Origin: Octopus vulgaris
Lineage: Eukaryota
Reading direction: 5' to 3'
Assembly (NCBI GenBank): GCA_951406725.2
Contig: OX597814.1
Coordinates: forward strand, 57,908,001 to 57,972,000
Length of the DNA stretch: 64,000 nt
The notes under the pieces: generated by a model
What the model was told of the DNA's origin: nothing
Seen by the model: only the letters and a program-made list of their open reading frames with translations
Databases searched by the model: none
Translations under genes and position numbers: made by a program
In this document: positions 9,013-59,454 of the stretch, piece after piece
How the letters are laid out: the number at the start of each line of letters is the position of its first letter
Position numbering within the stretch: position 1 is the first letter of the stretch

Positions 9013-10631
9013 AACAACAAACAAGATGAGACAAACACTATCCGTCAAATGTAAAGAATGACTTGAGTTATAAAGTTCTTTTATTTCCGAGTTCAAATTC
9101 AAACGAAATTAGCCTTTACTCAATCATCGTTCTGGGGTTGATAAGGAAAGTTCTAGTCAAGGACTGCAAATTCTGGGAACCGTTAGGATGCTGGAATATA
9201 TGTTCTCATATTTATTGTTATTTTTTGTATTTTGAGTTAAATTTTCCCCGTGGCCTATTTCGGCGTAGACCTAATCCGTCGCTCGATTTAACAACAATAC
9301 TTAACAGCTTAGATGCTTTATGGATACTTTCCTCCTTCCTTCCATAAGTTAAAGATGTTCATTAGTGGCTGTTCTGCCACTTGTCTAATCGAGTAAATAA
9401 ACATATTTTGCATAGCCCCACTTTTGATTCTTCTTTTTCCAGGCAAGTTAGTTTCAAGTCTCATTACAATCTTACATTCTGTTATTTATTTCTGCATTTT
9501 ATTTTATTTAAGTTTTCCTTTCTGTATGTTTAAATTTCTGTAAAAGTTTGCAATTTGTTTTAATTATCACACGTAAGGAATATAATGGTTATGTTTTAAA
9601 GGCTATTGAAATATTCATTAGCTGTCAGCTTAGTGATTACTAGTCTTAAGGAGATGACAATAGTTGTTCGTTTAGTTTAGTCTGCTCTTCAGTTACACTC
9701 GTGGCGTTATTCTATTCATTTGATTGTCTCCAGATTGAAATACGTCACTTTAGATAAATTGAAAATTGGCTAGTGACTGTCAGTAGTTAAATAAAATAAA
9801 ATGAGTAATAAACCATCGCTATGCTATTTAATTTAGTATTAACGTATTTTATGTAGCTGTATTAAGATCTAATTGGTAAAAATTATGCGGTGAGGATAAA
9901 ACAATATTAGTTGATGATTAACATAATTTTAATTGATCGGGTGTTATTATGACCTTCATGAATGAAACATACGTTTTACTATACATGCCAAAGTACTGAT
10001 GACATAATTACTAAATCGTAAACTGAATCATATTTCTAGAGTACAATGACTCACTAATCGCTCCCTCCACTAGTATAGGGAAATCTATACTTCGTTGATA
10101 AGGTCAGAATACAACTAAAACATACCATAAGTTATCTCGTGTTTGCTGAAATAACCATTATATTATTAGTACATACAAGCGGTGTAGAATTTTAATTAGG
10201 TGGAACGAGAAGGGCGATAAGGTATTGGCCTATTAGCTCACTAATATTGAATTTATATTCACTGGAAGAGTTTAGTAAACTTTCAGAAAAAGAAACCGAA
10301 CTTTAGATGCGTGAATTCAGAACAATAGCATCGCTTAATTCTAGATAACTATGCTACAATTGTAACGAAGGAAGGGATTCAATAGAGTGATCTAACAAAC
10401 AAAGCTGTCTTAGAAATATATTAGAGAGCTGTGCTTCCCTATAGTAATATTTACTGCTAAATAGGCGTAAAAGATTATAATATTTTGTCAGCGCTTGTAC
10501 ATCTACACAAGAAAGAAAATTCTAATTTCATGTTCTGTGACTGATATAGTTATAAGTCAGAATAGTTATAAGCAAAGAAAAAGTGTTTGCTTACAATTAA
10601 CATCTGTTATTAAGCTGTGAGATACTGTGTG

Positions 10632-10762
<131 letters not shown>

Positions 10763-10895
10763 TTATATTATATAGAGGGTACTATTATTCATAGGTACCG
10801 CACGCTAGGAGGGACTCTTGCAGTCAAAACTACTAAAATAAACAAATTGTACCGAATGCAAAACTTCAAAGCAAGTAATTTAAAAACAGAATTTA

Positions 10896-10959
10896 GTTAC
10901 ATATCACCTGTGATTTCGCAATCAATGCAGAATATGCATTCTATGCTCTTCAGTGCAAC
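10896..10959 (-). ncRNA. Type I hammerhead ribozyme, family H2, intact
   Basis: GUUGCA-CUGAAGA-GCA uag AAUGCA uauuc UGCAUU gau UGC-GAAA-UCAC ag GUGA-UA-UGUAAC. All three stems pair; cleavage triplet AUA. Confidence 0.85.
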
Positions 10960-11286
10960 GAACTCAAGACATGTAAGGAAAAAACACAATATAGCATACC
11001 CGACAGCCAACCGTAGAATTCGTCGTAGCATGTACGAATGTTTATCTTTACATATCTATGAAAATGGCGGGCTTATTCGCAATGCATTTCGGTTACAATT
11101 TGCCTATTCGGAACAAAAATTCAGTATTGAACTATTCCAGTGAAAAATATAAATTTAAAATTAAGGATAAAATAAATATTTTCAAAGTGGAAAAATTTAC
11201 AGATTTTTTCTCTTATGAGGTTTTTCACGCTAACTACTGATAATTTCTTATAAAGATTTTATCCTTATTTATATTCTCTCGTAAGC

Positions 11287-11344
11287 TCTACTGAAGACGA
11301 ATAAATCTTTTCTGAGATTAATTCCGAAATTGATTCAATATAGA
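11287..11344 (+). ncRNA. Type I hammerhead ribozyme, family H3, near intact
   Basis: UCUA-CUGAAGA-cGAAUaAAUCUU uucu GAGAUUaAUUCc-GAAA-UUGA u UCAA-UA-UAGA. Confidence 0.75.
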
Positions 11345-11562
11345 AATAACGAAATTTAAATATTCTAGCGGCTAGCTTGTCCGATTTCAGTTCAATTTTT
11401 CTGTAGCGAGTAGATTATATGTGGAAAATCAGCATATTGGCTTTAAAAAAATTTACTTTAGCCCTTTCTTATAAGTTGTTTGTAATTTTAACCGTAAAGG
11501 TATTTTAATATGCTGCCACATTTCTTGATGGAATTCTTTTCTGTAGAGAAAAAACTTCATCC

Positions 11563-11595
<33 letters not shown>

Positions 11596-11642
11596 ACATG
11601 TATATATATATATACATATATATGCATATATATACATATATA

Positions 11643-11699
<57 letters not shown>

Positions 11700-11702
<3 letters not shown>

Positions 11703-12039
11703 CAATATCTCGCAGATGTATGTACACCCCTAAAAAATATACTGCATTTTGTGGCATTATTTCAAGCCAGCCGGCTTTTTTTGCGCCAACTGCATGTACA
11801 TTTTTCTCGCGTATGCGTAGTATCAATCGCAATAACTGATGTACTTGCGCGTACAAATGCACGTTCCCACGGCTTTATCGATCGTATTGTCACCTGGAAT
11901 CTATTTTTGTAATTTTTTGAAGACTTATACACGCCTTGATATCGTCGGTATCTACATATCAAATTTGAGCGCAATCGGATGGAGGATGCCCAAGATCCTA
12001 GAAGATACACAGACAGACAGACAGAACGGATTTTATATA

Positions 12040-18689: not shown

Positions 18690-21600
18690 AAACACCGGGG
18701 ACGTGAGGAACACCGCGGACGTTTAAGATGTGAGAACGATAAAACAGAGTTCCGAAATCTATCCACAAACATCGAAAACAAAGACATCGTATGAAGCCAA
18801 AAATTTACTAACAAAGGATTGGACTATATCCGAGTAAGTAATACTCATTGAAATTATTACTATTTTCGAAACGAAATGATTTTAACTCGATATCATCTCC
18901 ACCTCTAACACAACACATGTAAACATGCGTGATACATTACGATCCATCAACACCAGATCATCCCCGACCCCAAACACCATGTACAAAAAAACTACGAAGA
19001 AATTAAATAACTCCGATATTATTCAACCCAAGAATAACAATCGGGAAGTACGTACTTTAAACTTACAACACAAAATGTACGAAAAACTACACGTGCAAAA
19101 CAATGAGACAACAGAAATGAACGGACCGGTACCCTACGAAAATGACGACCGTCAAAATAATGGGCCGGACGTTGTTCCTCATGTCCTGCAAATAAAACTC
19201 AAAAGACATAAATGGACACGTGAGGAATACATTTCTATCCTACACGCTTACTTCACAGCAGTGCTCTACCCAAAAAATGAAAACACAACAACACATACAT
19301 ATAAAATATGGAAGGAAAATAACATAAATATAGACTTGGATACAGCAATGAACCCTAATAAACTAGCTAACGTACGAAGATACATTCTCAACGCAAAAAA
19401 AATATCAGAAATAGAAATAGAACATCTAAAAGAAAAAATACATCAGGAAAATGTAGATAGAAGCCACACAACAATGCCCAACAATATAAACACTGAAACA
19501 GTAAAACACGAAGACAAACGTAACATTCCCAACAAACACGATGTAAACAAAAAACAACAAACCCAGACCGTAAGGATGCATAATAATACACGACAAACAG
19601 CAAGCCAAAACACGACAAACAAAAATACAAATGAGAACGAAAGCGATACAAATCTAAAACCTAGAAACAACGAAGGGGAGCCTAATGATTATGATAATAT
19701 AAAAAGTAGAATAATCAAAGAACTAAAAACCACAGAGCTCAAAATGGACCACCGACCATACCTCCCAAAAATCAAAATAGACGAAACAACAACACCAATT
19801 ATAAACAGCATATACCTAGCCGTCGCGGAACTAATAGCCACTGAAACAAAAAGCGATATCACTGAGCTAAATGACTTAGTATACGCAGCAGCCACTGCGC
19901 CACAAAAGAAGCTGGATACTCACTCAAACCCATCCAAACAGGAGTACCACCACCCAAACAAACCCTGTGGATAAATAACATCCAAAACAAAATACAAAAA
20001 TTAAGAAAAGATCTGTCGATTCTTAATGAAATCAGTAGACAATCAACGCTACTGAGCAACAAAAAGAAAACAAAAATACTCCGCAAATATAACACCACAG
20101 AAAAAGATTTACCTGAGATAAAAGAAAAGCTGAAGCAAGATATCCTTGCCAAAGCACAAAGGATCCGCCAGTACGAGAAACGCCAGCGCTTCTTTGAACA
20201 AAACAAAAAGTTCAACTCCAACCCCAAAAAGTTGTACCAAGAACTTGGCAAAAATAAAATAGAAATCACTGCAGCACCAACGGCAGAAGAAGTGGAAGAA
20301 TTCTGGAGAGAAATATGGTCGGCGAAAGAACAACCAAAAATAAAAGGAGTATTAAAACAACAAACTCAGCATCTGAGCAACTTTGGACCCCATAACAACT
20401 GAAGAGGTCACCCAGGCACTGCAAAGACTAAGCAACTGGAAGGCACCTGGGCATGACAAGATCCCCAACTTCTGGTTGAAATATCTAACAGGAATGCACA
20501 AAAAGCTGGCTGAAAACTTTAACAACATACTAGCAGAGCCAGAGACAATGCCTGAATGGCTCACGAAGGGGAAAACGATCTTAATTCCCAAATCAAATGA
20601 GACAGCAAAACCAGAAAACTACAGACCAATAACCTGTCTCCCTACAATGTACAAGGCATTTACTGCAGTGATATCGCAAAGGTTGAACAAGCACCTGGAC
20701 GAAAACAACCTGTTTCCAGAAGAGCAGAAAGGATGCCGCAAAGGCTCATATGGCTGTAAAGATCAACTAATGATTAATAAAGCCATAACTGAAGACAGCC
20801 ACAGAAAGAAGAAAGGCCTCAGTATGGCCTGGATCGACTCCAAAAAGGCGTTTGATAGCATCCCCCACACATGGATCCTCGAAACACTAGCCATTAACAA
20901 AGTAGCACCAACAATTATAAAATTCATAGGACACTCTATGAATAAATGGCAAACAGTGCTACAGCTCCAAACAAAAGAGGGACTCATGAAAACCAAAGCC
21001 ACCCTCATTAGAAGAGGAATATTCCAGGGAGACACGCTCTCTCCACTCCTTTTCTACTTGGCACTGTCACCTCTATCTGATATGCTAAATAGAACTGGAT
21101 GCGGATATAAATGTTACGGCAAAACGATCAGCCACCTTTTATATATGGATGACCTAAAACTATACGCTGCAAATGACAAACAGCTGGAAACACTATTAAA
21201 GACAGTTCATGGATTTACCAAAGAAATAGATATGAAATTTGGATTAGAAAAATGTGCCAAAGTAACCCTGAAAAGAGGAAAACTAGTTAAGAGTAGATAA
21301 AACCAATGAAATAAAAGAATTAGACCAAAGCCAAACTTACAAATACTTAGGAATCCATGAATTCGATAAGACACAACACACACAAATGAAAGAGAAAATA
21401 AAAAAAGAATATTATAGACGAGTTAATTCAATACTAAAAACAGAGCTCAATGCTAAAAACAAGATAATATGTGTTAACACTTTAGCTGTCGCAGTTATAA
21501 GTTACAGCTACAATATCCTTAACTGGACACTAAATGAACTGACCAAAATAGATAGGAAAACAAGAAAAATAATGACAGGATCTAGGATGCATCACCCAAA

Positions 21601-22790
21601 ATCTGACATAGAAAGACTATATATACAACGTATAGAAGGTGGTAGAGGCCTTATACAGCTGGAAAACTACTATAAAATAACCAACATAGGACTGCAAAAA
21701 TATCTACTTCAGAAGGAAGGAAAACTTATACAAATAGCCACAAAACACGAGCAAAACAAAAAGCTGTTCTCAGTATTTAAGGAAGCTGACAAATACAAAC
21801 AAGAAATCATACCACCTAATAAATATGAAGAAGAAGGAGAAGATGAAGAAACAACAAAAGCTATAAAGCAAATGAAATCCAAACTAAAACTAGAACAGCA
21901 AAGAACCATGATAAAACGATGGCAAGAAAAGCCCCTTCATGGTAAATACTGGACTAAACTAAACGCAAAAGAAATAGACAAAGAAAAATCCCAGCAATGG
22001 TTGAGAAGCTCAGGACTCAAAGCAGAGACAGAGGGATTTTTTAATTGCAGCACAAGACCAAAGCCTCCCCACCAGAAATTACCAAAAACATGTAATGAAA
22101 AGAAATATAACAAGTAACTGCAGAATATGTGGAGATGGACAAGAAACAATAAATCATATTATCTCTAGCTGCCCAGTCCTGGCTAAGAAGGAATATATTC
22201 ACAGACATGACAGAGTTGGAACCTACATACACTGGAAGCTATGCCAACATTATGGAATAACAACAGAAAAAAGATGGTATAGGCACACACCAGAAAAGGT
22301 CACAGAAAACGAGACAGCAACCATACTCTGGGATATGCCGATACACACAGATAGATAAATTAAGGCCAACAGACTAGATATAGTTGTCAGAGATCATGAA
22401 GAAAAAAATGCTTTCTAATTGATGTATCAATACCGGCTGATGACAACGTGTCTCTAAAAGAAATGGAGAAACTCTCAAAATACAAAGACCTGGAAATAGA
22501 GGTAACCAGAATGTGGAATCTAAAAACAAAAACAATTCCTATCATAGTAGGTGCATTAGGCATGATAAAAAAATATTCAGATAAATACATAACAAAAACA
22601 CCAGGACTTACAAACACATATAACATACAGAAAATTGCACTACTTGGCACTGCACACATTCTACGCAGAACACTTTCCATACAATAACCATCAGAGCATC
22701 ACAACAAATCACAGCACATACCCAAGGCACACAGAGCTGCACTCGGTAGTGAAGTGAAAGCACGCTAAAAAAATAAAACTACTGAATGAT
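18690..22790 (+). mobile_element. R4/Dong-like non-LTR retrotransposon (RT plus C-terminal restriction-like endonuclease), near full length
   Basis: Single long broken ORF, short 3' UTR, (TAA)n on both sides. Confidence 0.9.
18925..22687 (+). pseudogene. Disrupted RT-RLE polyprotein
   Basis: WKAPGHD, YRPITCL, QGDTLSPLLF, YMDD, GGRGL, CRIC..ETINHIISSC, RHD, K..KY. Breaks near 19897, 20330-20380, 21298, 22040, 22356 and 22405. Confidence 0.92.
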
Positions 22791-37879: not shown

Positions 37880-39580
37880 TATAAACTTAGATAAACTTAG
37901 ATATGTTTCGACCAAAGATTGGTCCAGGCCATGTCTAACTTAATAGCACCACCTGATAGGATTATTCGAATCCTGTTTAAGTCAAGTTTTGTTTATGGTC
38001 CATTCAAGTAGTGAGTTCTTGTTGGGTGAGTTGTATCCAATTATGGGTGGCTTATCTGGTATTCTTTGAAGGAATCTATCCAGACTCCGTTTAAAGTTGA
38101 TGGGATCCTTTTCCTCTTTGATCTCTTTCGGGACAATGTTAAATAGGGCAGGGCCTGTTGAGGAAAAGAAATTATGTTGCAGTGTACATGTATGCTGTGA
38201 TCTTGAATTCGGCAGGGGACGTATCACCCGTGGTCCCAGTCTTGGATGAACCTTGAAGCTAATGTTCAGGTCGTTTGGGCAAAGTTAGCGGTATATTCTC
38301 CACATCGTACAAATGATGTACCGCTCACGGCGACGCTGGAGAGAGTAAAGTTCCAAGGCTTTAAGGCGATCCCAATAATCGAGAGCAGCCATGCCTTCAA
38401 TTCGTTTAGTGAGTGCCCTCTGGGGTGACTCAATCCTCGAGATGTTTTGTATTGTATGGGGAGACCACAGTGGGCAGCAGTATTCCAGGTGTGGCCGTAC
38501 AAAGGAGGAAAAAAGTGGTATGATGACACATTGTTCTCTGGACCGGAAAGTTCTTAAGATCCAGGATCTCATCCTATGAGCTATATCAACCTTCTTGTTG
38601 ATGTGTGCACTCCAACTGAGATCGTCATCAACAATTACACCCAGGTCTCTGATATTGTTAGAGGCTGTGGGCGGTTTCCCTGAAGGAAGAGAGTATGGCT
38701 GTGTTAGTGAGGAATTTCTTCCAAAATGCATCAGCTCAAATTTTCCCTCGTTCAGTTGCATTTTGTTTCTGTCTGCCCATTGACGCACAGCATATAGATC
38801 AGACTGGAGTTGAGTTCGGCCTGCTTCTTCATTGACGATTTGCTGGAGCTTAGTGTCATCAGCAAATATTTTCACTTTGCAGTAATGTACGACACTGGAA
38901 AGGTCGTTTATGTAAATTATGAAGAGTAGCGGACCCAAGACAGTCCCCAGGGGGACACCGCTGGTGACTTTTGCTGGGCTTGAGTGGACTCCATCAACTA
39001 CAACATGTTGTGTTCTATTCGCCAGGAAATAATTAATCTAATGTAGAACTTTTCCACGGATTCCGACATTTGCCAATTTTGAGAGTAGGATATTATGGTC
39101 TACCCTGTCGAACGCTTTACTGAAGTCAAGATATATGACGTCAGAGTTCTAACCTGTCCCCAAGGCTTTGAGTACATCTTCAATGTGGTGTAAGAGCTGT
39201 GTTAGACAGTCCCTGCCACAGCGAAAGCCATGCTGATTTGCATTTAGGAGTTTGTGGGTCTTCAGGAAGTCAGCTATCCTTGATCTTAACACTCTTTCAA
39301 ACACTTTAATGATGTGGGAGGTGAGTGAGATTGAGCGATAGTTGAGTGCGAGAGATCTGTTTCCCTGTTTGAAAACCGAGATGACTGACTGGGATAGAAA
39401 CTGTTTCGGTATATAACCTGCGTCTAACGAATTTCTCCAGAGGTTGGTCAGAGGGACTGCAAGTTGGTGTCTACATTCCTTCAGGAGACTAGCGGGGAAT
39501 CTATTAGGGCCTACAGCAGAGTAGTATTTGACCTCATTTACTGCTGCTACGATGTCAGTGGCAGTGAAGGTTATGTCTGA
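37880..39580 (-). mobile_element. 5'-truncated CR1/L2-like LINE (RT domain plus 3' tail)
   Basis: NYRSISLTS, QHGFR, LDFSKAFDRV, GVPLGTVLGPLLF, FADD, VRPHLEYC; short tandem tail (atctaagttt) near 37882-37903. Confidence 0.92.
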
Positions 39581-39777
39581 GATTTTATGTATATATATAT
39601 ATATGTGTGTGTGTAAATATATATGCATATATATAAATATATGTATATATATATATATGTGTGTGTATGTATGTATATATATATATATATATACATGTGT
39701 ATAAATATGTGTTTATATATATATATGTGTGTACATATATATATATATGTACATATAAATATATGTACATTCAAATA

Positions 39778-44379: not shown

Positions 44380-44460
44380 TCCCGGGTTGATTCGGGGTTA
44401 ACCACAGTAAGTAAGGTACTCAATACATAGCAGAGTAAAATTAATTTATTATATAGAAGG

Positions 44461-44511
44461 AGCTTCTACAGGACTAGTACTGTTTCATTCAAGAGAAATC
44501 TTCAGGAAGCT
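44461..44511 (-). ncRNA. Type I hammerhead ribozyme, family H8
   Basis: AGCUUC-CUGAAGA-uUUC ucuu GAAu-GAAA-CAG uacuaguc CUG-UA-GAAGCU; triplet GUA. Confidence 0.8.
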
Positions 44512-44946
44512 ATTTAACAAGAATTGTATTAGCATTTATACATTTAGGCAGGTTTAAAGGAGTGGTGGTGGGGGACTTTTTGGGGGTAGGCATAGCGCAA
44601 AATATCATACTTGGGGGAGTGGTCAAGGAGTCAGTGGTAAGTTAGATGAAAGAATAGATAAATAAAAAAATAAAAAAATAAAAAAATAAAAAATATTGTA
44701 TTTGTATATGTGTGTGTGTATTTGTATGTGTGCGCGTGTGTGTGTATGTATGTGTATGTATACTTGTATATGTATATGCATGAATGTATATATATGTGTG
44801 TGTATATGTGTATTATGTATGTATTTATATAGATATGTAGTTTATATATATATATATGTATGTATATGCATCTGTCCGTGTGTGTGTATGTGTATATATG
44901 TGTATCATTTTTGCGTATGTATATATGTATATGTGTATATGTGTGC

Positions 44947-44984
<38 letters not shown>

Positions 44985-45119
44985 GTGTATATATATCTGT
45001 ATATATATATATATATATATGCATACGTATGTGTATGTACATGTATATATGTATGTGTGTATAGGTATATATGTTTATATATGTGAGTATGTAGTGATAT
45101 AAGTATATGCATGTGTATA

Positions 45120-45150
<31 letters not shown>

Positions 45151-45335
45151 GTATGGGTATGTGTATCAGTGTATATGTATATATGTATGTGTGTGTGTAT
45201 GTATATGTATGTATATGTGTATATATGTATGTGTATATGTGTATATATATATATATATGTGTATATGTGTGTATGTATGTGTATGTGTATGTATGTGTAT
45301 ATATATATATATGTATGTGTATATGTATATATATG

Positions 45336-45370
<35 letters not shown>

Positions 45371-45867
45371 GAGTGCGTGTGTGTATGTATGCATATATGT
45401 ATGTATGCATGTATATGTGTATGTATATATATGTGTGTAAGTGTGTGCATATATGTATATGTAAGTATGTGTGCGCGTATGAGTATGTATGTATGCCTGC
45501 ACACGTGTATATATATATGTGTGTGTGTGTATATATATGGATGCGCGTGCGTGTGTGCACGTGTATGGGTACGCATGTATATGTGTATGTGCGTGTATGT
45601 GTATACGTGTATGTATGTATGTGTGTGCGTAGATTTGTATATGTATGTGTGAGTGTGTATATATATATATATATATATATACATATATATAGATGGGTGT
45701 GTGTATGCGTATAAATGCATGTAAGTATGGATGTATGGATGTATGCATGTATGTATACGTATGTATGTGTGTATGTGTGTATGTATATATATATGTGTGT
45801 ATATATGTTTGTGTATGTATATATATGTGTATGTATGTGTGTGTATATGTATGTGTGTATGTGTATG

Positions 45868-45917
<50 letters not shown>

Positions 45918-46796
45918 GGTATGTATCTGTATGTAGGAGTATATATGTGCGTGTGTGTATGTATATGTGTGTATATATATATATATATGTATATTTATTG
46001 GTGTATATGTATAGACTAGCCTCCTAAAGTGTAGACACGAATCTGTAGGTACGAGTACGTATGTGTATATACGTGAACGTATGTAGATGTTTGTATGTAT
46101 GAATATAACGCGTGCGTACGTGTATGTGTATGAGTGTACGAATGGGTGAATGTACGTGCTAATGAGTGTGCGTGCGGGAATGAGTACTTGCCTTCTAGTA
46201 GACAGACAAATGGACATGCAGCCATTGCCAGGATTCTTAGCTCTAGCGATCAAAGATAACAAAAGTAATAAATGAAGATAAAATTAAAATTAGGGAATGG
46301 GCCTGTATTGGATTGTATATATATATATGTATATGTATATTTGTATGTATGTATGTGTGTATGTGTAGGTATGTATAGGTACACATGTGTATGTGTATGT
46401 GCATGTATATATATGTGTGTATGTATGTATGTACACACATGTATATATATGTATGCGTATATATGTTTATATATATATATATATATGTACATAGGTGTAT
46501 GTGGGTGTATGTATATATAGGTGTAAATATGTGTATATAGGGAACTAGGTGTGTTGTGTGTGCATGAGTGTATGTGCGTATGAAGATATATTTTTATGTG
46601 TATATATGTATGTGTGGTCGTGGGTATATATATATATATATATATATACATGTGTGTATGCGTGCATGCATGGGAGTGAGTGTATGCATATATACGTGTG
46701 TGTACGTGTAGACAGGTATAGGCATGTGCATGTGTATAAATTTGTATATGTGGGCGGGTGTATGTATGTGTGTATGTAGATATGTATGTATGTGTG

Positions 46797-46847
<51 letters not shown>

Positions 46848-47163
46848 GTGTGTGTATATATATGTGTATATATATATGTGTGTGTAGATACGTATACATG
46901 TGTGTATAGGTATAAGTGAGAATCTCCTTATTTACCTATAACTCTATCCCCCTTTTTTATATATATATTTTTTTATATATATTTTTTATTTTTTTATTTT
47001 TTTATTTTTTTATTTATCTATTCTTTCATCTAACTTACCACTGACTCCTTGACCACTCCCCCAAGTATGATATTTTGCGCTATGCCTACCCCCAAAAAGT
47101 CCCCCACCACCACTCCTTTAAACCTGCCTAAATGTATAAATGCTAATACAATTCTTGTTAAAT

Positions 47164-47214
47164 AGCTTCCTGAAGATTTCTCTTGAATGAAACAGTACTA
47201 GTCCTGTAGAAGCT
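47164..47214 (+). ncRNA. Type I hammerhead ribozyme, family H8 (identical inverted copy)
   Basis: agcttc ctgaaga tttctcttgaat gaaa cagtactagtcctg ta gaagct. Confidence 0.8.
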
Positions 47215-47225
47215 CCTTCTATATA

Positions 47226-47276
<51 letters not shown>

Positions 47277-54136: not shown

Positions 54137-54785
54137 GCAATAATAAATCTCTGAACGAGATGTAAACAGTAACTGCACGACAATGTGAGGTATACTAGCC
54201 ATCTCAATATGGCTAACCACTAAGGGTGGGTGTTACTGTAGCTTGTAGCCCCAGGAGATTATCGTCGCCAGCTGGCTTTAGGTACACTTTCTGTGCGCTT
54301 ATGGTATTTGCAAAGGGAGGTCATCCCTTCCTCGTCAACCTAGGTGACACGCACGGACTGCAGTTTCTAGGTATTTGCCTGTCTTCAGCGTACGGTAGTT
54401 ACCGGTTGTCGATGAAGGGAGTCCCAATGCAAATCTTTATATAGTTTTTCCAGTATCTTTTCGTCACTGATCTCGAAAAACTCTATGCAAGCAATAATAA
54501 ATCTCTGAACGAGATGTAAACAGTAACTGCACGACAATGTAAGGTATACTAGCCATCTCAATATGGCTAACCACTAAGGGTGGGTGTTACTGTAGCTTGT
54601 AGCCCCAGGAAATCATCGTTTCCAGCTGGCTTTAGGCACACTTTCTGCGCCCTTTGCAAATACCATAAGGGCACAGAAAGTATGCCTAAAGCCAGCTGGA
54701 GACGATGATCGCCTGGGGCTACAAGCTACAGTAACACCCACCCTTAGTGGTTAGCCATATTGAGATGGCTAGTATACCTTGCATT
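54137..54785 (-). mobile_element. PLE-end relic with partial tandem plus inverted repeat
   Basis: 54137-54300 is repeated directly at 54491-54652 and inverted at 54650-54785; hammerhead in the spacer. Confidence 0.85.
54351..54393 (-). ncRNA. Minimal type I hammerhead ribozyme, family H9
   Basis: GUACG-CUGAAGA-cAGG caaaua CCUa-GAAA-CUGCAG-UC-CGUGC; palindromic ACUGCAGU stem III, triplet GUC. Confidence 0.8.
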
Positions 54786-55250: not shown

Positions 55251-55381
55251 TCATACATACACACATATATATATATTTATACCGGAGTAAACACATATAT
55301 GTGAAACAAGGTGGAAAAAAAGAGTACCCAAATACCAGTGGTAGAGTAATATGCTTTATTTAAAGCAGCAGAAAATTCAAC

Positions 55382-55429
55382 AAAATCTGTTACTCTGAGT
55401 TTCTCGTTGCCGTTCATCAGACAGTTTTT
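55382..55429 (-). ncRNA. Type I hammerhead ribozyme, family H10 (sense copy)
   Basis: CUGU-CUGAUGA-aCG gcaa CGa-GAAA-CUC a GAG-UA-ACAG; stem I extends (aacaaaa/uuuuguu); triplet GUA. Confidence 0.78.
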
Positions 55430-55577
55430 GTTAGAATGGAACCAATATATCAATTTAATCCAGACTCTTACAAACGCTACACCTTTACAACATAAACTTG
55501 CTTGATTGGCCCTTTAGAAATAACGGTCAATATTCGAGCGATAAATAAAAAATGAGCTCAAAAATATATATATATAT

Positions 55578-55990
55578 GAGTGGCTGTGTGGTAAGTAGCT
55601 TGCTAACCAACCACATGGTTCCGGGTTCAGTCCCACTGCGTGGCATCTTGGGCAAGTGTCTTCTGCTATAGCCCCGGGCCGACCAATGCCTTGTGAGTGG
55701 ATTTGGTAGACGGAAACTGAAAGAAGCCTGTCGTGTATATGTATATATATATAAGTGTGTGTGAATATGTTTGTGTGTCTGTGTTTGTTCCCCTAGCATT
55801 GCTTGACAACCGATGCTGGGGTGTTTACATCCCCGTCACCTAGCGGTTCGGCAAAAGAGACCGATAGAATAAGTACTGGGCTTACAAAGAATAAGTCCCG
55901 GGGTCGAGTTGCTCGACTAAAGGCGGTGCTCCAGCATGGCCGCAGTCAAATGACTGAAACAAGTAAAAAGAAAAAGAAAAAGAAAGAAAG
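55578..55990 (+). mobile_element. SINE family C inserted in the left PLE arm only
   Basis: Near-consensus copy in a (TA)n run; absent from the matching point of the right arm (about 58600-58630). Confidence 0.9.
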
Positions 55991-57017
55991 ATATATATAT
56001 ATATATAAAAATTATGAAAATTATAAAATTCGAGGAAAAACCTTACATTGAGCAAAATACATATTGACGTTAAAGAAGGAAATATAATTAATACATGGAA
56101 ATTAAAATGCATTATAAATATTACACTGCAATACATATTCATATTAAAGTGTACATATATATATCAACATACACAGAAGGATGCGTGCAAACGCCATACA
56201 TATACAGATGTATAAATATAAATCTAAAATATACACACAAATGCATGCACACATATGTATACGCAATCTATCTCGCACGCAAGTTAAATCATGGATACTA
56301 ATGTAGCGTTCCTTATTTACGGAGCAAAGCTTAAGACATAAGTAAGTGAGGGGGACGTAAAGTTGTATGCACCAGTATCATATAGTTAGAGAAAAAAACG
56401 AAAGAAACGAAGAGAGAGAAAAAGAAATGAAGAAGGGGGAAGGAAAAAAGAAAAAGGAGGAGTGAGGAAAAAACGAAATAAGAAAAATTATGTATACAAC
56501 TGTGTAACCACGTTATTGACATTTATATAGAGACAAGTATACAAACACACAAGTTCAAATGGATACATACACATACAGTCGTGTATGTGTGTGCTTAAGC
56601 ACAAACATACGCTCACTTACACATACACAGAGACGCATGCTTACAAATACATATCCATGGCTATACACATATTTACATCAAAATTCTAATTTTTGACAAC
56701 ATTGCTTTTTTAAAATATTGGTGAGTGTAATAATGAAAAATATACGAAAGACATAAAATATAACACCCTATTTTGGATCATCTATAAATTAAAAACCAAA
56801 GTAATCCTATACAATACAATAACATGAAATAAACAAAGCCGAAGGTTTTTCCTAAGGTATATGTAGAAATATAAACAAAATAAACAAAATATATGCATGA
56901 GACTTTGCTATACGGAATGAAATCTGCATAGCGCGAAACAAATCCATCGTCGCGTTTACATACTAGTCCAAGAGTCAAAATCAAAATTTCAAACATCAAA
57001 AATACAAAATATATACT

Positions 57018-57810
57018 CTATCTATATGGTATATTTATATTTGACATTTTAAATTTGGTTGCGTGTCTACATAAGTTCATCAGCTCACTTCTTTGATTCA
57101 AAGAATTATTGTCTTTGAATAAAATATACAGTTTCTCTAATAGTCAAAGATTGCACTTAAAATTATTCCTGTGTGCTCTATGCCTGTATGGTGCCGCTCT
57201 GTCCAGAATGCTCCATGTCACGTTGAAAGGTGGGGTTTCCTTTTCTTTTAGTTCCCAGGCATATTTTGCTAGGCTGGTCCTCTTCCTATTCTCTGGGTAT
57301 CTAAATGAATTTTTATGCGAATAAAATCGTGTTTTAAACGAATTTTCTGAAGCCCCTGTATATGTCTTGTATTCCGATGAGCCTTCTATTTGTACCTTGG
57401 CTCTATAAACTACTCCTTTTACTAGACATTTCCCTTCTAACGGACAGGAGGTTTCATTTTTGCAATTGCATTTCTTAATGGGCTCGGCACCATGTTTAAT
57501 CTCAATCAGATTCCTATTATGCTGGCTAATGTAAGGGGCGAAATTTCTGCAACAAGAATAGCTAACCTTCAGGGTTCTTCTATTAAATACCCTATAGAAT
57601 TTATGGCCCTGCTTAAAATGCTTAGAGACTAATCTCAAAAATTCCTTACCTATATTAGTCTTTACGGCCAAATTGAAAGCCGGGTTGAACCACAAAACTT
57701 TCCTGGTCCTAGTTCTTCGTGCAGCATTATTATCAGCATTAAGCTGGCTGTATTGGATCTTCTCAGAGAATCCACTATTCTTTAATGCGCTATCGTACAG
57801 AGAAATATGA
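57018..57810 (-). pseudogene. Penelope-like ORF C-terminus (linker plus GIY-YIG endonuclease), one in-frame stop
   Basis: WFNPAFNLAVKTNIGKEF..CNC..CPLEGKCL..GVVY..YTG..FKTRF..H..CNL*LLEKLYI..LNQRSELMNLCRH. Confidence 0.92.
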
Positions 57811-58594
57811 AAGAAAAAAATACTTTGATTTTTAATTTATAGATGATCCAAAATAGGGTGTTATATTTTATATGTCTTTCGTATATTTTTCATTATTACA
57901 CTCACCATTTTTTAAAAAGGGCAATGTTGTCAAAAATTAGAATTTTGATGTAAATATGTGTATAGCCATGGATATGTATTTGTAAGCATGCGTCTCTGTG
58001 TATGTGTAAGTGAGCGTATGTTTGTGCTTAAGGCACACACATACACGACTGTATGTGTATGTATCCATTTGAACTTGTGTGTCTATATACTTGTCTCTAT
58101 ATAAATGTCAATAACGTGGTTACACAGCTTGAATACATAATTTTTCTTATTTCGTTTTTTCCCACTCCTCCTTTTTCTTTTTTCCTTCCCCCTTCTTCGT
58201 TTCTTTCGTTTTTTCTCTAACTATATGATACTGGTGCATACAACTTTACGTCCCCCTCACTTACTTATGTCTTAAGCTTTGCTCCGTAAATAAGGAACGC
58301 TACATTAGCATCCATGATTTTAACTTGTGTGCGAGATAGATTGCGTATACATATGTGTGCATGCATTTGTGTGTATATTTTAGATTTATATTTATACATC
58401 TGTATATGTATGGCGTTTGCACGCATCCTTCTGTGTATGTTGATATATATATGTACACTTTAATATGAATATGTATTGCAGTGTAATATTTATAATGCAT
58501 TTTAATTTCCATGTATTAATTATATTTCCTTCTTTAACGTCAATATGTATTTTGTTCAATGTAAGGTTTTTCCTCGAATTTTATAATTTTCATA

Positions 58595-58631
<37 letters not shown>

Positions 58632-58768
58632 TATTTTTGAGCTCATTTTTTATTTATCGCTCGAATATTGACCGTTATTTCTAAAGGGCCAAGCAAGCAA
58701 GTCCATTTTTTAAAGGTGTAGCATTTGTAAGAGTTTGGATTGAATTGATATATCGGTTCCATTCTAAC

Positions 58769-58817
58769 AAAAACTGTCTGATGAACGGCAACGAGAAACT
58801 CAGAGTAACAGATTTTG
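58769..58817 (+). ncRNA. Type I hammerhead ribozyme, family H10 (inverted copy)
   Basis: ctgt ctgatga acggcaacga gaaa ctcagag ta acag. Confidence 0.78.
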
Positions 58818-59454
58818 TTGAATTTTCTGCTGCTTTAAATAAAGTATATATATTTATGTATACATATATACACACATACATGCATATATGTAGACACACA
58901 CTCACACACACATATATGTACGTATGTATATGTATATAAAATTTTAAGACAAATAAATGAAGAAAAACAAATGAGTTGCCAGTGGCATGTATAAGGACAC
59001 TAATAATGAATAAAATCATAATAATTCGGAGTAGGCAACAGTATGTTTATAACGTCAACAGAGAATAAATTCTTACATTGTTGAAGTTGTATTCATCTCC
59101 AAATGAAAAATAAACAGATATCTCGTAACTATTGCGACCGATTCCAAATGAGAAATTCCAGTTGAGAAAATCGCAATAATCTAGAATTCTCAATTTTATT
59201 GAGACAAGGGGATACTGTGGTCACTGGATTTTGCCTGAATGGGCATTATCAACACAGCAGCTATCCAGCATTGATTCCAAAATTCACGAGATTAGAGATG
59301 GATTGGAAGAGAAGTGTACACTTACGGATGAGAGTACACTAACGCATAAGGAGCTAACGGAAATGACTAAGAGAGGCTAATTACAATGCAAGTTTACTTT
59401 TCGGTTAGTTGAAATTATCTTCCCGTTGAGACAGAAAAGTAAACGAATGGCAAA

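Follow-up and report, generated by a model that had tools for sequence, protein, structure and literature searches.

Metazoan non-LTR retrozymes are described as units of 150-450 bp (Cervera and de la Pena 2020, PMC7229834), and retrozymes have been argued to be non-autonomous derivatives of Penelope elements (Li, Clavereau and Pollet 2026, 10.64898/2026.07.22.740005; PMC7761336). Penelope-like insertion itself is reported to involve nicking and extension of both target strands, two internal start sites and AT-rich targets (PMC11167929). Inverted 5'-truncated copies and (TA)n targets are described for such insertions (PMC8557442), as are a head-to-head layout and duplications of 8-10 bp in Penelope copies (PMC3846280). 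A separate body of work concerns the symmetric viroid-like RNAs, clusters of which are given as 73-83% paired, with hammerheads mainly of type III (10.1101/2022.07.19.500677).

The locus considered here lies in a window of 64,000 nucleotides from Octopus vulgaris (contig OX597814.1, positions 57,908,001 to 57,972,000), a stretch that is AT-rich and contains many microsatellites, and the genome searched comprised 2.8 Gb in 227 contigs. The first-pass annotation of this window had reported two hammerheads, H2 and H3, lying back to back and pointing outward in one block bounded by (TA)n arrays, the ends of which are not inverted copies of each other. It had offered two readings of the block, either a head-to-head fusion of two Penelope-like element ends, or one element with a ribozyme on each polarity. 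Positions, strands, bounding arrays and the comparison of the ends all bear out the description (Table 1), and the first of the two readings fits, with one refinement: from its sequence matches, the block is best read as a complete two-armed insertion of one family, A (10770-11267), abutting a 5'-truncated copy of another, B.

Table 1. Features of the block and its flanks, in window coordinates
Feature	Position	Strand	Remark
Left target array, a (CA)n run followed by a (TA)n run	10635-10759, bounding repeat 10635-10774		repeat scan
Left copy of 10-bp direct repeat, candidate target-site duplication	10760-10769	+	equals A positions 6-15 antisense
Family A left arm	10770-11173	-	monomer 97-495 and start of next unit
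H2, type I hammerhead of family A	10896-10959	-	predicted cut between 10902 and 10901
Family A right arm	11170-11267	+	monomer 11-108, inverted relative to left arm
Family B copy, truncated at its 5' end (about 300 bp of a 485-bp unit)	11264-11562	+	sequence match
Right copy of 10-bp direct repeat	11266-11275	+	once per B monomer, at breakpoint
H3, type I hammerhead of family B	11287-11344	+	predicted cut after 11340
(TA)n microsatellite, right target array	11563-11702		repeat scan

Three segments make up the block, with about 95 bp of A, inverted, between the two hammerhead-bearing parts. In monomer coordinates it runs from A 495 to 97 antisense, then from A 11 to 108 sense, and then from just before B 1 to about B 297 sense. 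The middle piece is the A monomer continued, inverted, and the two A arms together cover the 495-nt monomer almost exactly once. The RNA 3' end of the left arm points leftward and lies at the "near" end site of A, and that of the B copy points rightward and lies at the "far" end site of B. The right A arm has a 4-nt microhomology at each end (11170-11173 and 11264-11267) and stops at monomer positions 104-108, 15 nt before the usual far site of A (123). The block contains no tandem repeat and no terminal repeat beyond 10 bp, no A or B sequence was found in its left flank, and the only stop-free frames of at least 120 aa that touch it (10601-11143 and 11547-11912) both begin in microsatellites.

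A CUGAAGA core, a long stem II and an AUA triplet are found in both ribozymes, as first annotated. H2, which had been called intact, has all the parts of a type I hammerhead, namely a 6-bp stem I, CUGAAGA, the long stem II, GAAA, stem III and the AUA triplet; H3 has a 4-bp stem I, CUGAAGA, the long stem II, GAAA, a 3-bp palindromic stem III and AUA. The C-C mismatch behind the label "near-intact" given to H3 recurs in 15 other copies, and it is therefore a trait of the subfamily and no sign of decay. Nor are the motifs a product of chance, since a descriptor scan that averaged 0.1 hammerheads in 30 resampled windows found seven in the real one. The H3 fold is conserved among 12 distinct relatives: 91.5% of its cells are paired, a value reached by none of 500 shuffles, and both sides have changed at 7 of 16 pairs. 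These figures are inflated by relatedness, and in the underlying alignment two distant rows are shifted by one column near GAAA. One of 16 matches to the loop variant of the window's H3 is exact, and no sister copy has the same variant.

Predicted folding of the isolated ribozymes is less striking. Neither H2 nor H3 folds better than its shuffles (z -1.3 and -1.0), the lowest-energy folds of both are without stem III, and the hammerhead fold lies above the lowest-energy fold by 2.7 (H2) and 5.8 (H3) kcal/mol. Rfam returned five matches in the block at E up to 10, none of them a hammerhead, and among the 150 of 210 matches listed for the whole window all were microRNA models, mostly on simple repeats. 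Together, the weak isolated folds, the energy gaps and the lack of detection by Rfam argue against strong monomeric activity of H2 and H3. For H3, whose palindromic stem III is weak, cleavage would be predicted to depend on dimers.

The family that carries H2 has a 495-bp monomer, seen at the tandem locus L012, and that carrying H3 a monomer of 485-486 bp, seen at the tandem locus L040; a 31-nt H2 probe has 428 matches in the genome and a 29-nt H3 probe 1013. With the whole block as query, 120 matches were obtained from the best 40 of 4222 candidates, and none of the 39 other A candidates scored passes query position 502 of 788. The right, B part as query gave 47 matches from the best 40 of 2093 candidates, a set that differs from that of A, and among the candidates scored the B matches begin at query position 490. 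The two monomers do not align locally (score 23, against 22.8 +/- 3.1 for shuffled sequences). Their global alignment is marginally above shuffles (2/200), H2 and H3 have some stem II letters in common, and the two families may have a remote common origin.

Judged by sequence, A and B qualify as metazoan non-LTR retrozymes, and as two new members of the retrozyme or non-autonomous Penelope kind. Each unit carries a type I hammerhead, the units form short head-to-tail tandems (H2-H2 pairs 435-447 nt apart at L017, L020 and L025), they are free of protein-coding sequence, and their predicted circles are self-paired, with z -3.69 for A and -3.53 for B (40 dinucleotide shuffles, one copy each). 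Consistent with the published descriptions, they are non-coding, low-GC tandem units with one hammerhead each (PMC7229834, PMC7761336, 10.64898/2026.07.22.740005), their monomers are predicted to form well self-paired circles, and Penelope-like elements are abundant in the same genome. Unlike the retrozymes so described, they are 485-495 bp long, slightly above the range of 150-450 bp (PMC7229834), and most copies comprise one or two units in a two-armed arrangement instead of long arrays. No in-line coding sequence was found at A and B loci, and an antisense hammerhead core is absent from both monomers. L029 (745-816) and L030 (2728-2799) contain a further family, which resembles B by about 70-75% in the part upstream of the hammerhead and shows compensatory changes in stems I and II. 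An A variant that would lengthen the microhomology at the A/B junction to 7 nt was rejected; it comes from a subfamily of A that has diverged further (52 matches; 24 loci mapped, 0 with B), and the left arm in the window is without it.

A Penelope-like ORF family of this genome, so labelled on motifs read by eye, numbers 20,797 candidates and includes numerous 727-aa open frames and numerous outward hammerhead pairs; Pfam gave no match for this abundant ORF. Thirty loci of this family, which carries a hammerhead of its own, were without an A or B pseudo-LTR, and no autonomous carrier of A or B was found among them. At L088 (G000:C2:100060001-100070000), a stop-free frame of 1056 aa shows reverse transcriptase and GIY-YIG-like motifs, and two different hammerheads lie 350 bp apart on the same strand upstream of it (L089, 656-1114).

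The arrangement of arms in A and B was examined after the removal of duplicate loci (13 for the layout counts, 19 for the end-site and age counts). Of 29 other A elements, 14 consist of two arms that meet head to head and have their 3' ends on the outside, as do 13 of 30 B-containing elements; one B pair, at L051, points inward. Each family has two fixed sites at which the 3' ends gather, 495 (near) and 123 (far) in A and 213 and 305 in B, at distances past the cut of 127 and 250 nt in A and of 142 and 234 nt in B. One arm ends at each of the two sites in 13/14 two-arm elements of A and 11/13 of B, and the A part of the block alone nearly satisfies this one-near-one-far rule; of the far-site ends of A, 14/21 are at 123. 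Most A 3' ends are TA-flanked, the targets being (TA)n or AT-rich. Because elements insert as outward two-arm copies, outward pairs of identical hammerheads result, for instance at L007, L014, L018 and L035, and in the window at 44467/47170 and 55391/58778. By eye, similar motifs precede the end sites, a CCCT run (near) and ATCCT (far), at A 102-108 and 489-495 and at B ~190-200 and 294-300. These motifs, common to A and B, are possibly a signal for one enzyme.

The block and its families resemble insertions of endonuclease-bearing Penelope-like elements in several respects: they show partial tandems, a 5'-truncated copy that lies inverted and head to head with its neighbour, targets that are (TA)n or AT-rich, two fixed start sites and a possible 10-bp duplication. 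They differ from such elements in having no coding sequence and in end sites 92-123 nt apart, as against a published tail of 30-40 bp. By analogy, we infer that insertion of A and B works in a Penelope-type, twin-primed manner. In the twin priming of LINE-1, two target-strand ends prime on one RNA. The A part of the block is alike in that its direct and inverted segments adjoin each other on the template and meet at a microhomology; unlike LINE-1 twin priming, A and B have no poly(A) end, both starts are at internal fixed sites, and many arms are longer than one unit.

A genome-wide search for H2 and H3 at fixed spacing, the check proposed with the first-pass annotation, found the pair at 340-370 nt once in 2.8 Gb, and a 31-mer from the A/B junction, with up to 2 mismatches allowed, likewise has one match. 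The next-nearest H2/H3 pair is 43 kb apart (35 exact H2 and 92 exact H3 matches, C1-C3). With 428 and 1013 separate matches against one co-occurrence, H2 and H3 usually occur separately, in different families, which is the situation that the annotation had set against the reading as a single element. Their adjacency is most likely the outcome of ordinary nesting of one insertion in another and does not mark a viroid-like unit. Under uniform placement the expected count of this exact outward A/B pair is 0.04; for outward hammerhead pairs within 500 bp of any kind the genome-wide expectation is 35-140 before shared TA targeting, a rough estimate from a uniform model and a small sample (2-4 hammerheads in 200 kb of unselected sequence). 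Furthermore, different hammerhead families cluster in the loci examined, often sharing a TA array or lying within 1.1 kb (L040, L055, L089, L124). Old A or B fragments are also seen in TA arrays with other hammerhead-bearing elements at L040 (995-1095), L055 (637-1250) and L114 (3475-3659). Because head-to-head insertion and shared TA targets bring ribozymes on both strands close together, their presence within a few hundred bases is no sign of viroid-like replication in Penelope-rich genomes, and a false lead is thereby removed.

As to the order of events, nesting is the probable account, with a younger A inserted at the edge of an older, truncated B in a TA microsatellite. Divergence from the nearest copy is 1.0% for A and 4.3% for B, and the rate of window-only differences in B exceeds that of its ten nearest copies (0.7-2.4%). 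Such differences number 3/485 in A and 9/293 in B under the second counting rule (Fisher p 0.013) and 4/485 and 8/293 under the first (p 0.066), in a comparison with copies picked by their likeness to the window. A 10-bp direct repeat flanks the A part, and at L047 a B copy is cut at the 10-mer breakpoint, directly on (TA)n, as predicted for the empty site. Among the contigs listed for four DNA or unlabelled sequencing runs, which were fragmentary and dominated by paralogues, no piece extends across the block. The left 10-mer is A's own sequence too, present at 10/30 terminal A ends, and because A itself contains it, it is no independent proof of duplication. Against nesting, A abuts B without a TA spacer, although TA flanks the majority of A 3' ends; the right arm of A falls short of the site used by most far-site ends; the outer ends of the block (A near, B far) also fit the one-near-one-far rule; a direct mixed join is also found at L048; and the 30 Penelope-like loci yielded no autonomous carrier of A or B.

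In the nested order, B would have come first, as a single 5'-truncated arm inserted between TA runs. A GIY-YIG endonuclease would then have introduced a nick into each strand at the AT-rich boundary of the TA run and B, with a distance of about 10 nt between the two nicks. The top-strand end would have primed reverse transcription at the near site of A, with ~400 nt copied, through H2, so that the A template, at this step, would have been uncut or circular; the bottom-strand end, which is B DNA, would have primed near the far site of A, with ~95 nt copied, and the two cDNAs would have been joined via the 4-nt microhomology. Arms that cover the A monomer almost once are as expected if both primed on one RNA. 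The A copy was probably pasted by a Penelope-like enzyme. Each ribozyme would act in transcripts of its own family only, and the copy in the window, with one hammerhead per strand, is likely a dead end. The locus is nevertheless of modest mechanistic value, in that it may record where a two-armed insertion was primed, together with a target duplication of 10 bp, because one of its flanks is not pure microsatellite and TA arrays normally hide such traces.

Less likely, though deserving of some weight, is one integration event that drew on two RNAs. The right primer would have started at the far site on B RNA, copied ~300 nt, switched to A RNA at the 4-nt microhomology, copied 95 nt more and joined the A-primed left arm, a course that would leave no TA spacer and a 4-nt microhomology at the A/B junction, and outer ends made up of one near and one far site, as observed. 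Joins of this general kind are on its side as well, a third family being joined to B head to head and without a spacer at L048, and ~150 bp of other DNA lying between two A arms at L014. It is harder to reconcile with a B that looks several times older than A at this locus and is without a close sister copy, and the switch would have had to fall both beside the far site of A and on the single 10-mer of B that matches the near site of A. If true, one enzyme would serve several retrozyme families in trans, and families could be fused into DNA with a different hammerhead per strand, possible raw material for ambisense viroid-like RNAs. No paper on joins between two retrozyme families was found in the openly accessible literature.

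The two loci just named have features of their own. At L048 (1310-1797; G000:C13:8345490-8348781), ~93 bp of a third short fold-back family, which is also present in L025 and L011, is joined to a 5'-truncated B, and the join sits between two TA runs. At L014 (1341-1492), the ~150 bp of unrelated DNA begins with a short duplicated stretch and has no match in the other loci examined.

Considerably more doubtful is an account in which A and B were inserted separately, near each other, and the end of the A right arm, a TA spacer and the 5' part of B were lost afterwards in a deletion through the 4-nt microhomology. Such a loss would explain why the right arm is short and why no spacer is present. 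Different hammerhead families are often found in one TA array or within 1.1 kb, as at the four loci listed above, and microhomology-mediated deletions are reported in Penelope copies (PMC3846280), but an extra event is needed and the position of the junction on the 10-bp direct repeat is left unexplained.

The second reading of the first-pass annotation, a single element that carries ribozymes on both polarities and replicates, or did so in the past, by a symmetric rolling circle in the manner of viroid-like RNAs, is scarcely credible: one intact-looking hammerhead per strand does lie within 450 bp, and viroid-like circles whose two polarities carry different ribozymes are known (10.1101/2022.07.19.500677), but the reading fails on each feature that could be tested, as H2 and H3 co-occur once in the genome, each belongs to a tandem family of its own with no antisense core in the monomer, the block has neither a terminal nor a tandem repeat and does not fold as a unit (as a circle, z -1.28 in 25 shuffles and 59% paired, against -3.69 and -3.53 for the monomers), and the insertion layout by itself yields outward pairs in which the two hammerheads are identical. 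With no such repeat and one core per strand, each strand of the block could be cut once only. The segment between the ribozymes has a fold z of -1.37 (40 shuffles). Like the symmetric viroid-like RNAs, as described (10.1101/2022.07.19.500677), the block has ribozymes on both polarities in a span of a few hundred bases, but it is not one of them: it has no unit with both ribozymes, no circular or multimeric form and a single instance, in genomic DNA, its pairing of 59% compares with 73-83%, and its hammerheads are of type I where theirs are mainly of type III. It is also unlike a retrozyme unit, being a junction of two families.

Other mobile-element remains are present in the same window. A different hammerhead family is present at 44444-47231 as two perfectly matching inverted copies of 253 bp, with 2.3 kb of simple repeats between them, and a tandem plus fold-back unit at 54140-54780 has a hammerhead at 54356-54388. 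Two broken copies of a LINE-type reverse transcriptase, identified by RVT_1 matches, are located at 18886-22117 and 38285-39712. Finally, the stretch 55349-58849 is a fold-back of a truncated Penelope-like element, with the end of its ORF at 57147-57836 on the minus strand and outward hammerheads at 55391 and 58778.
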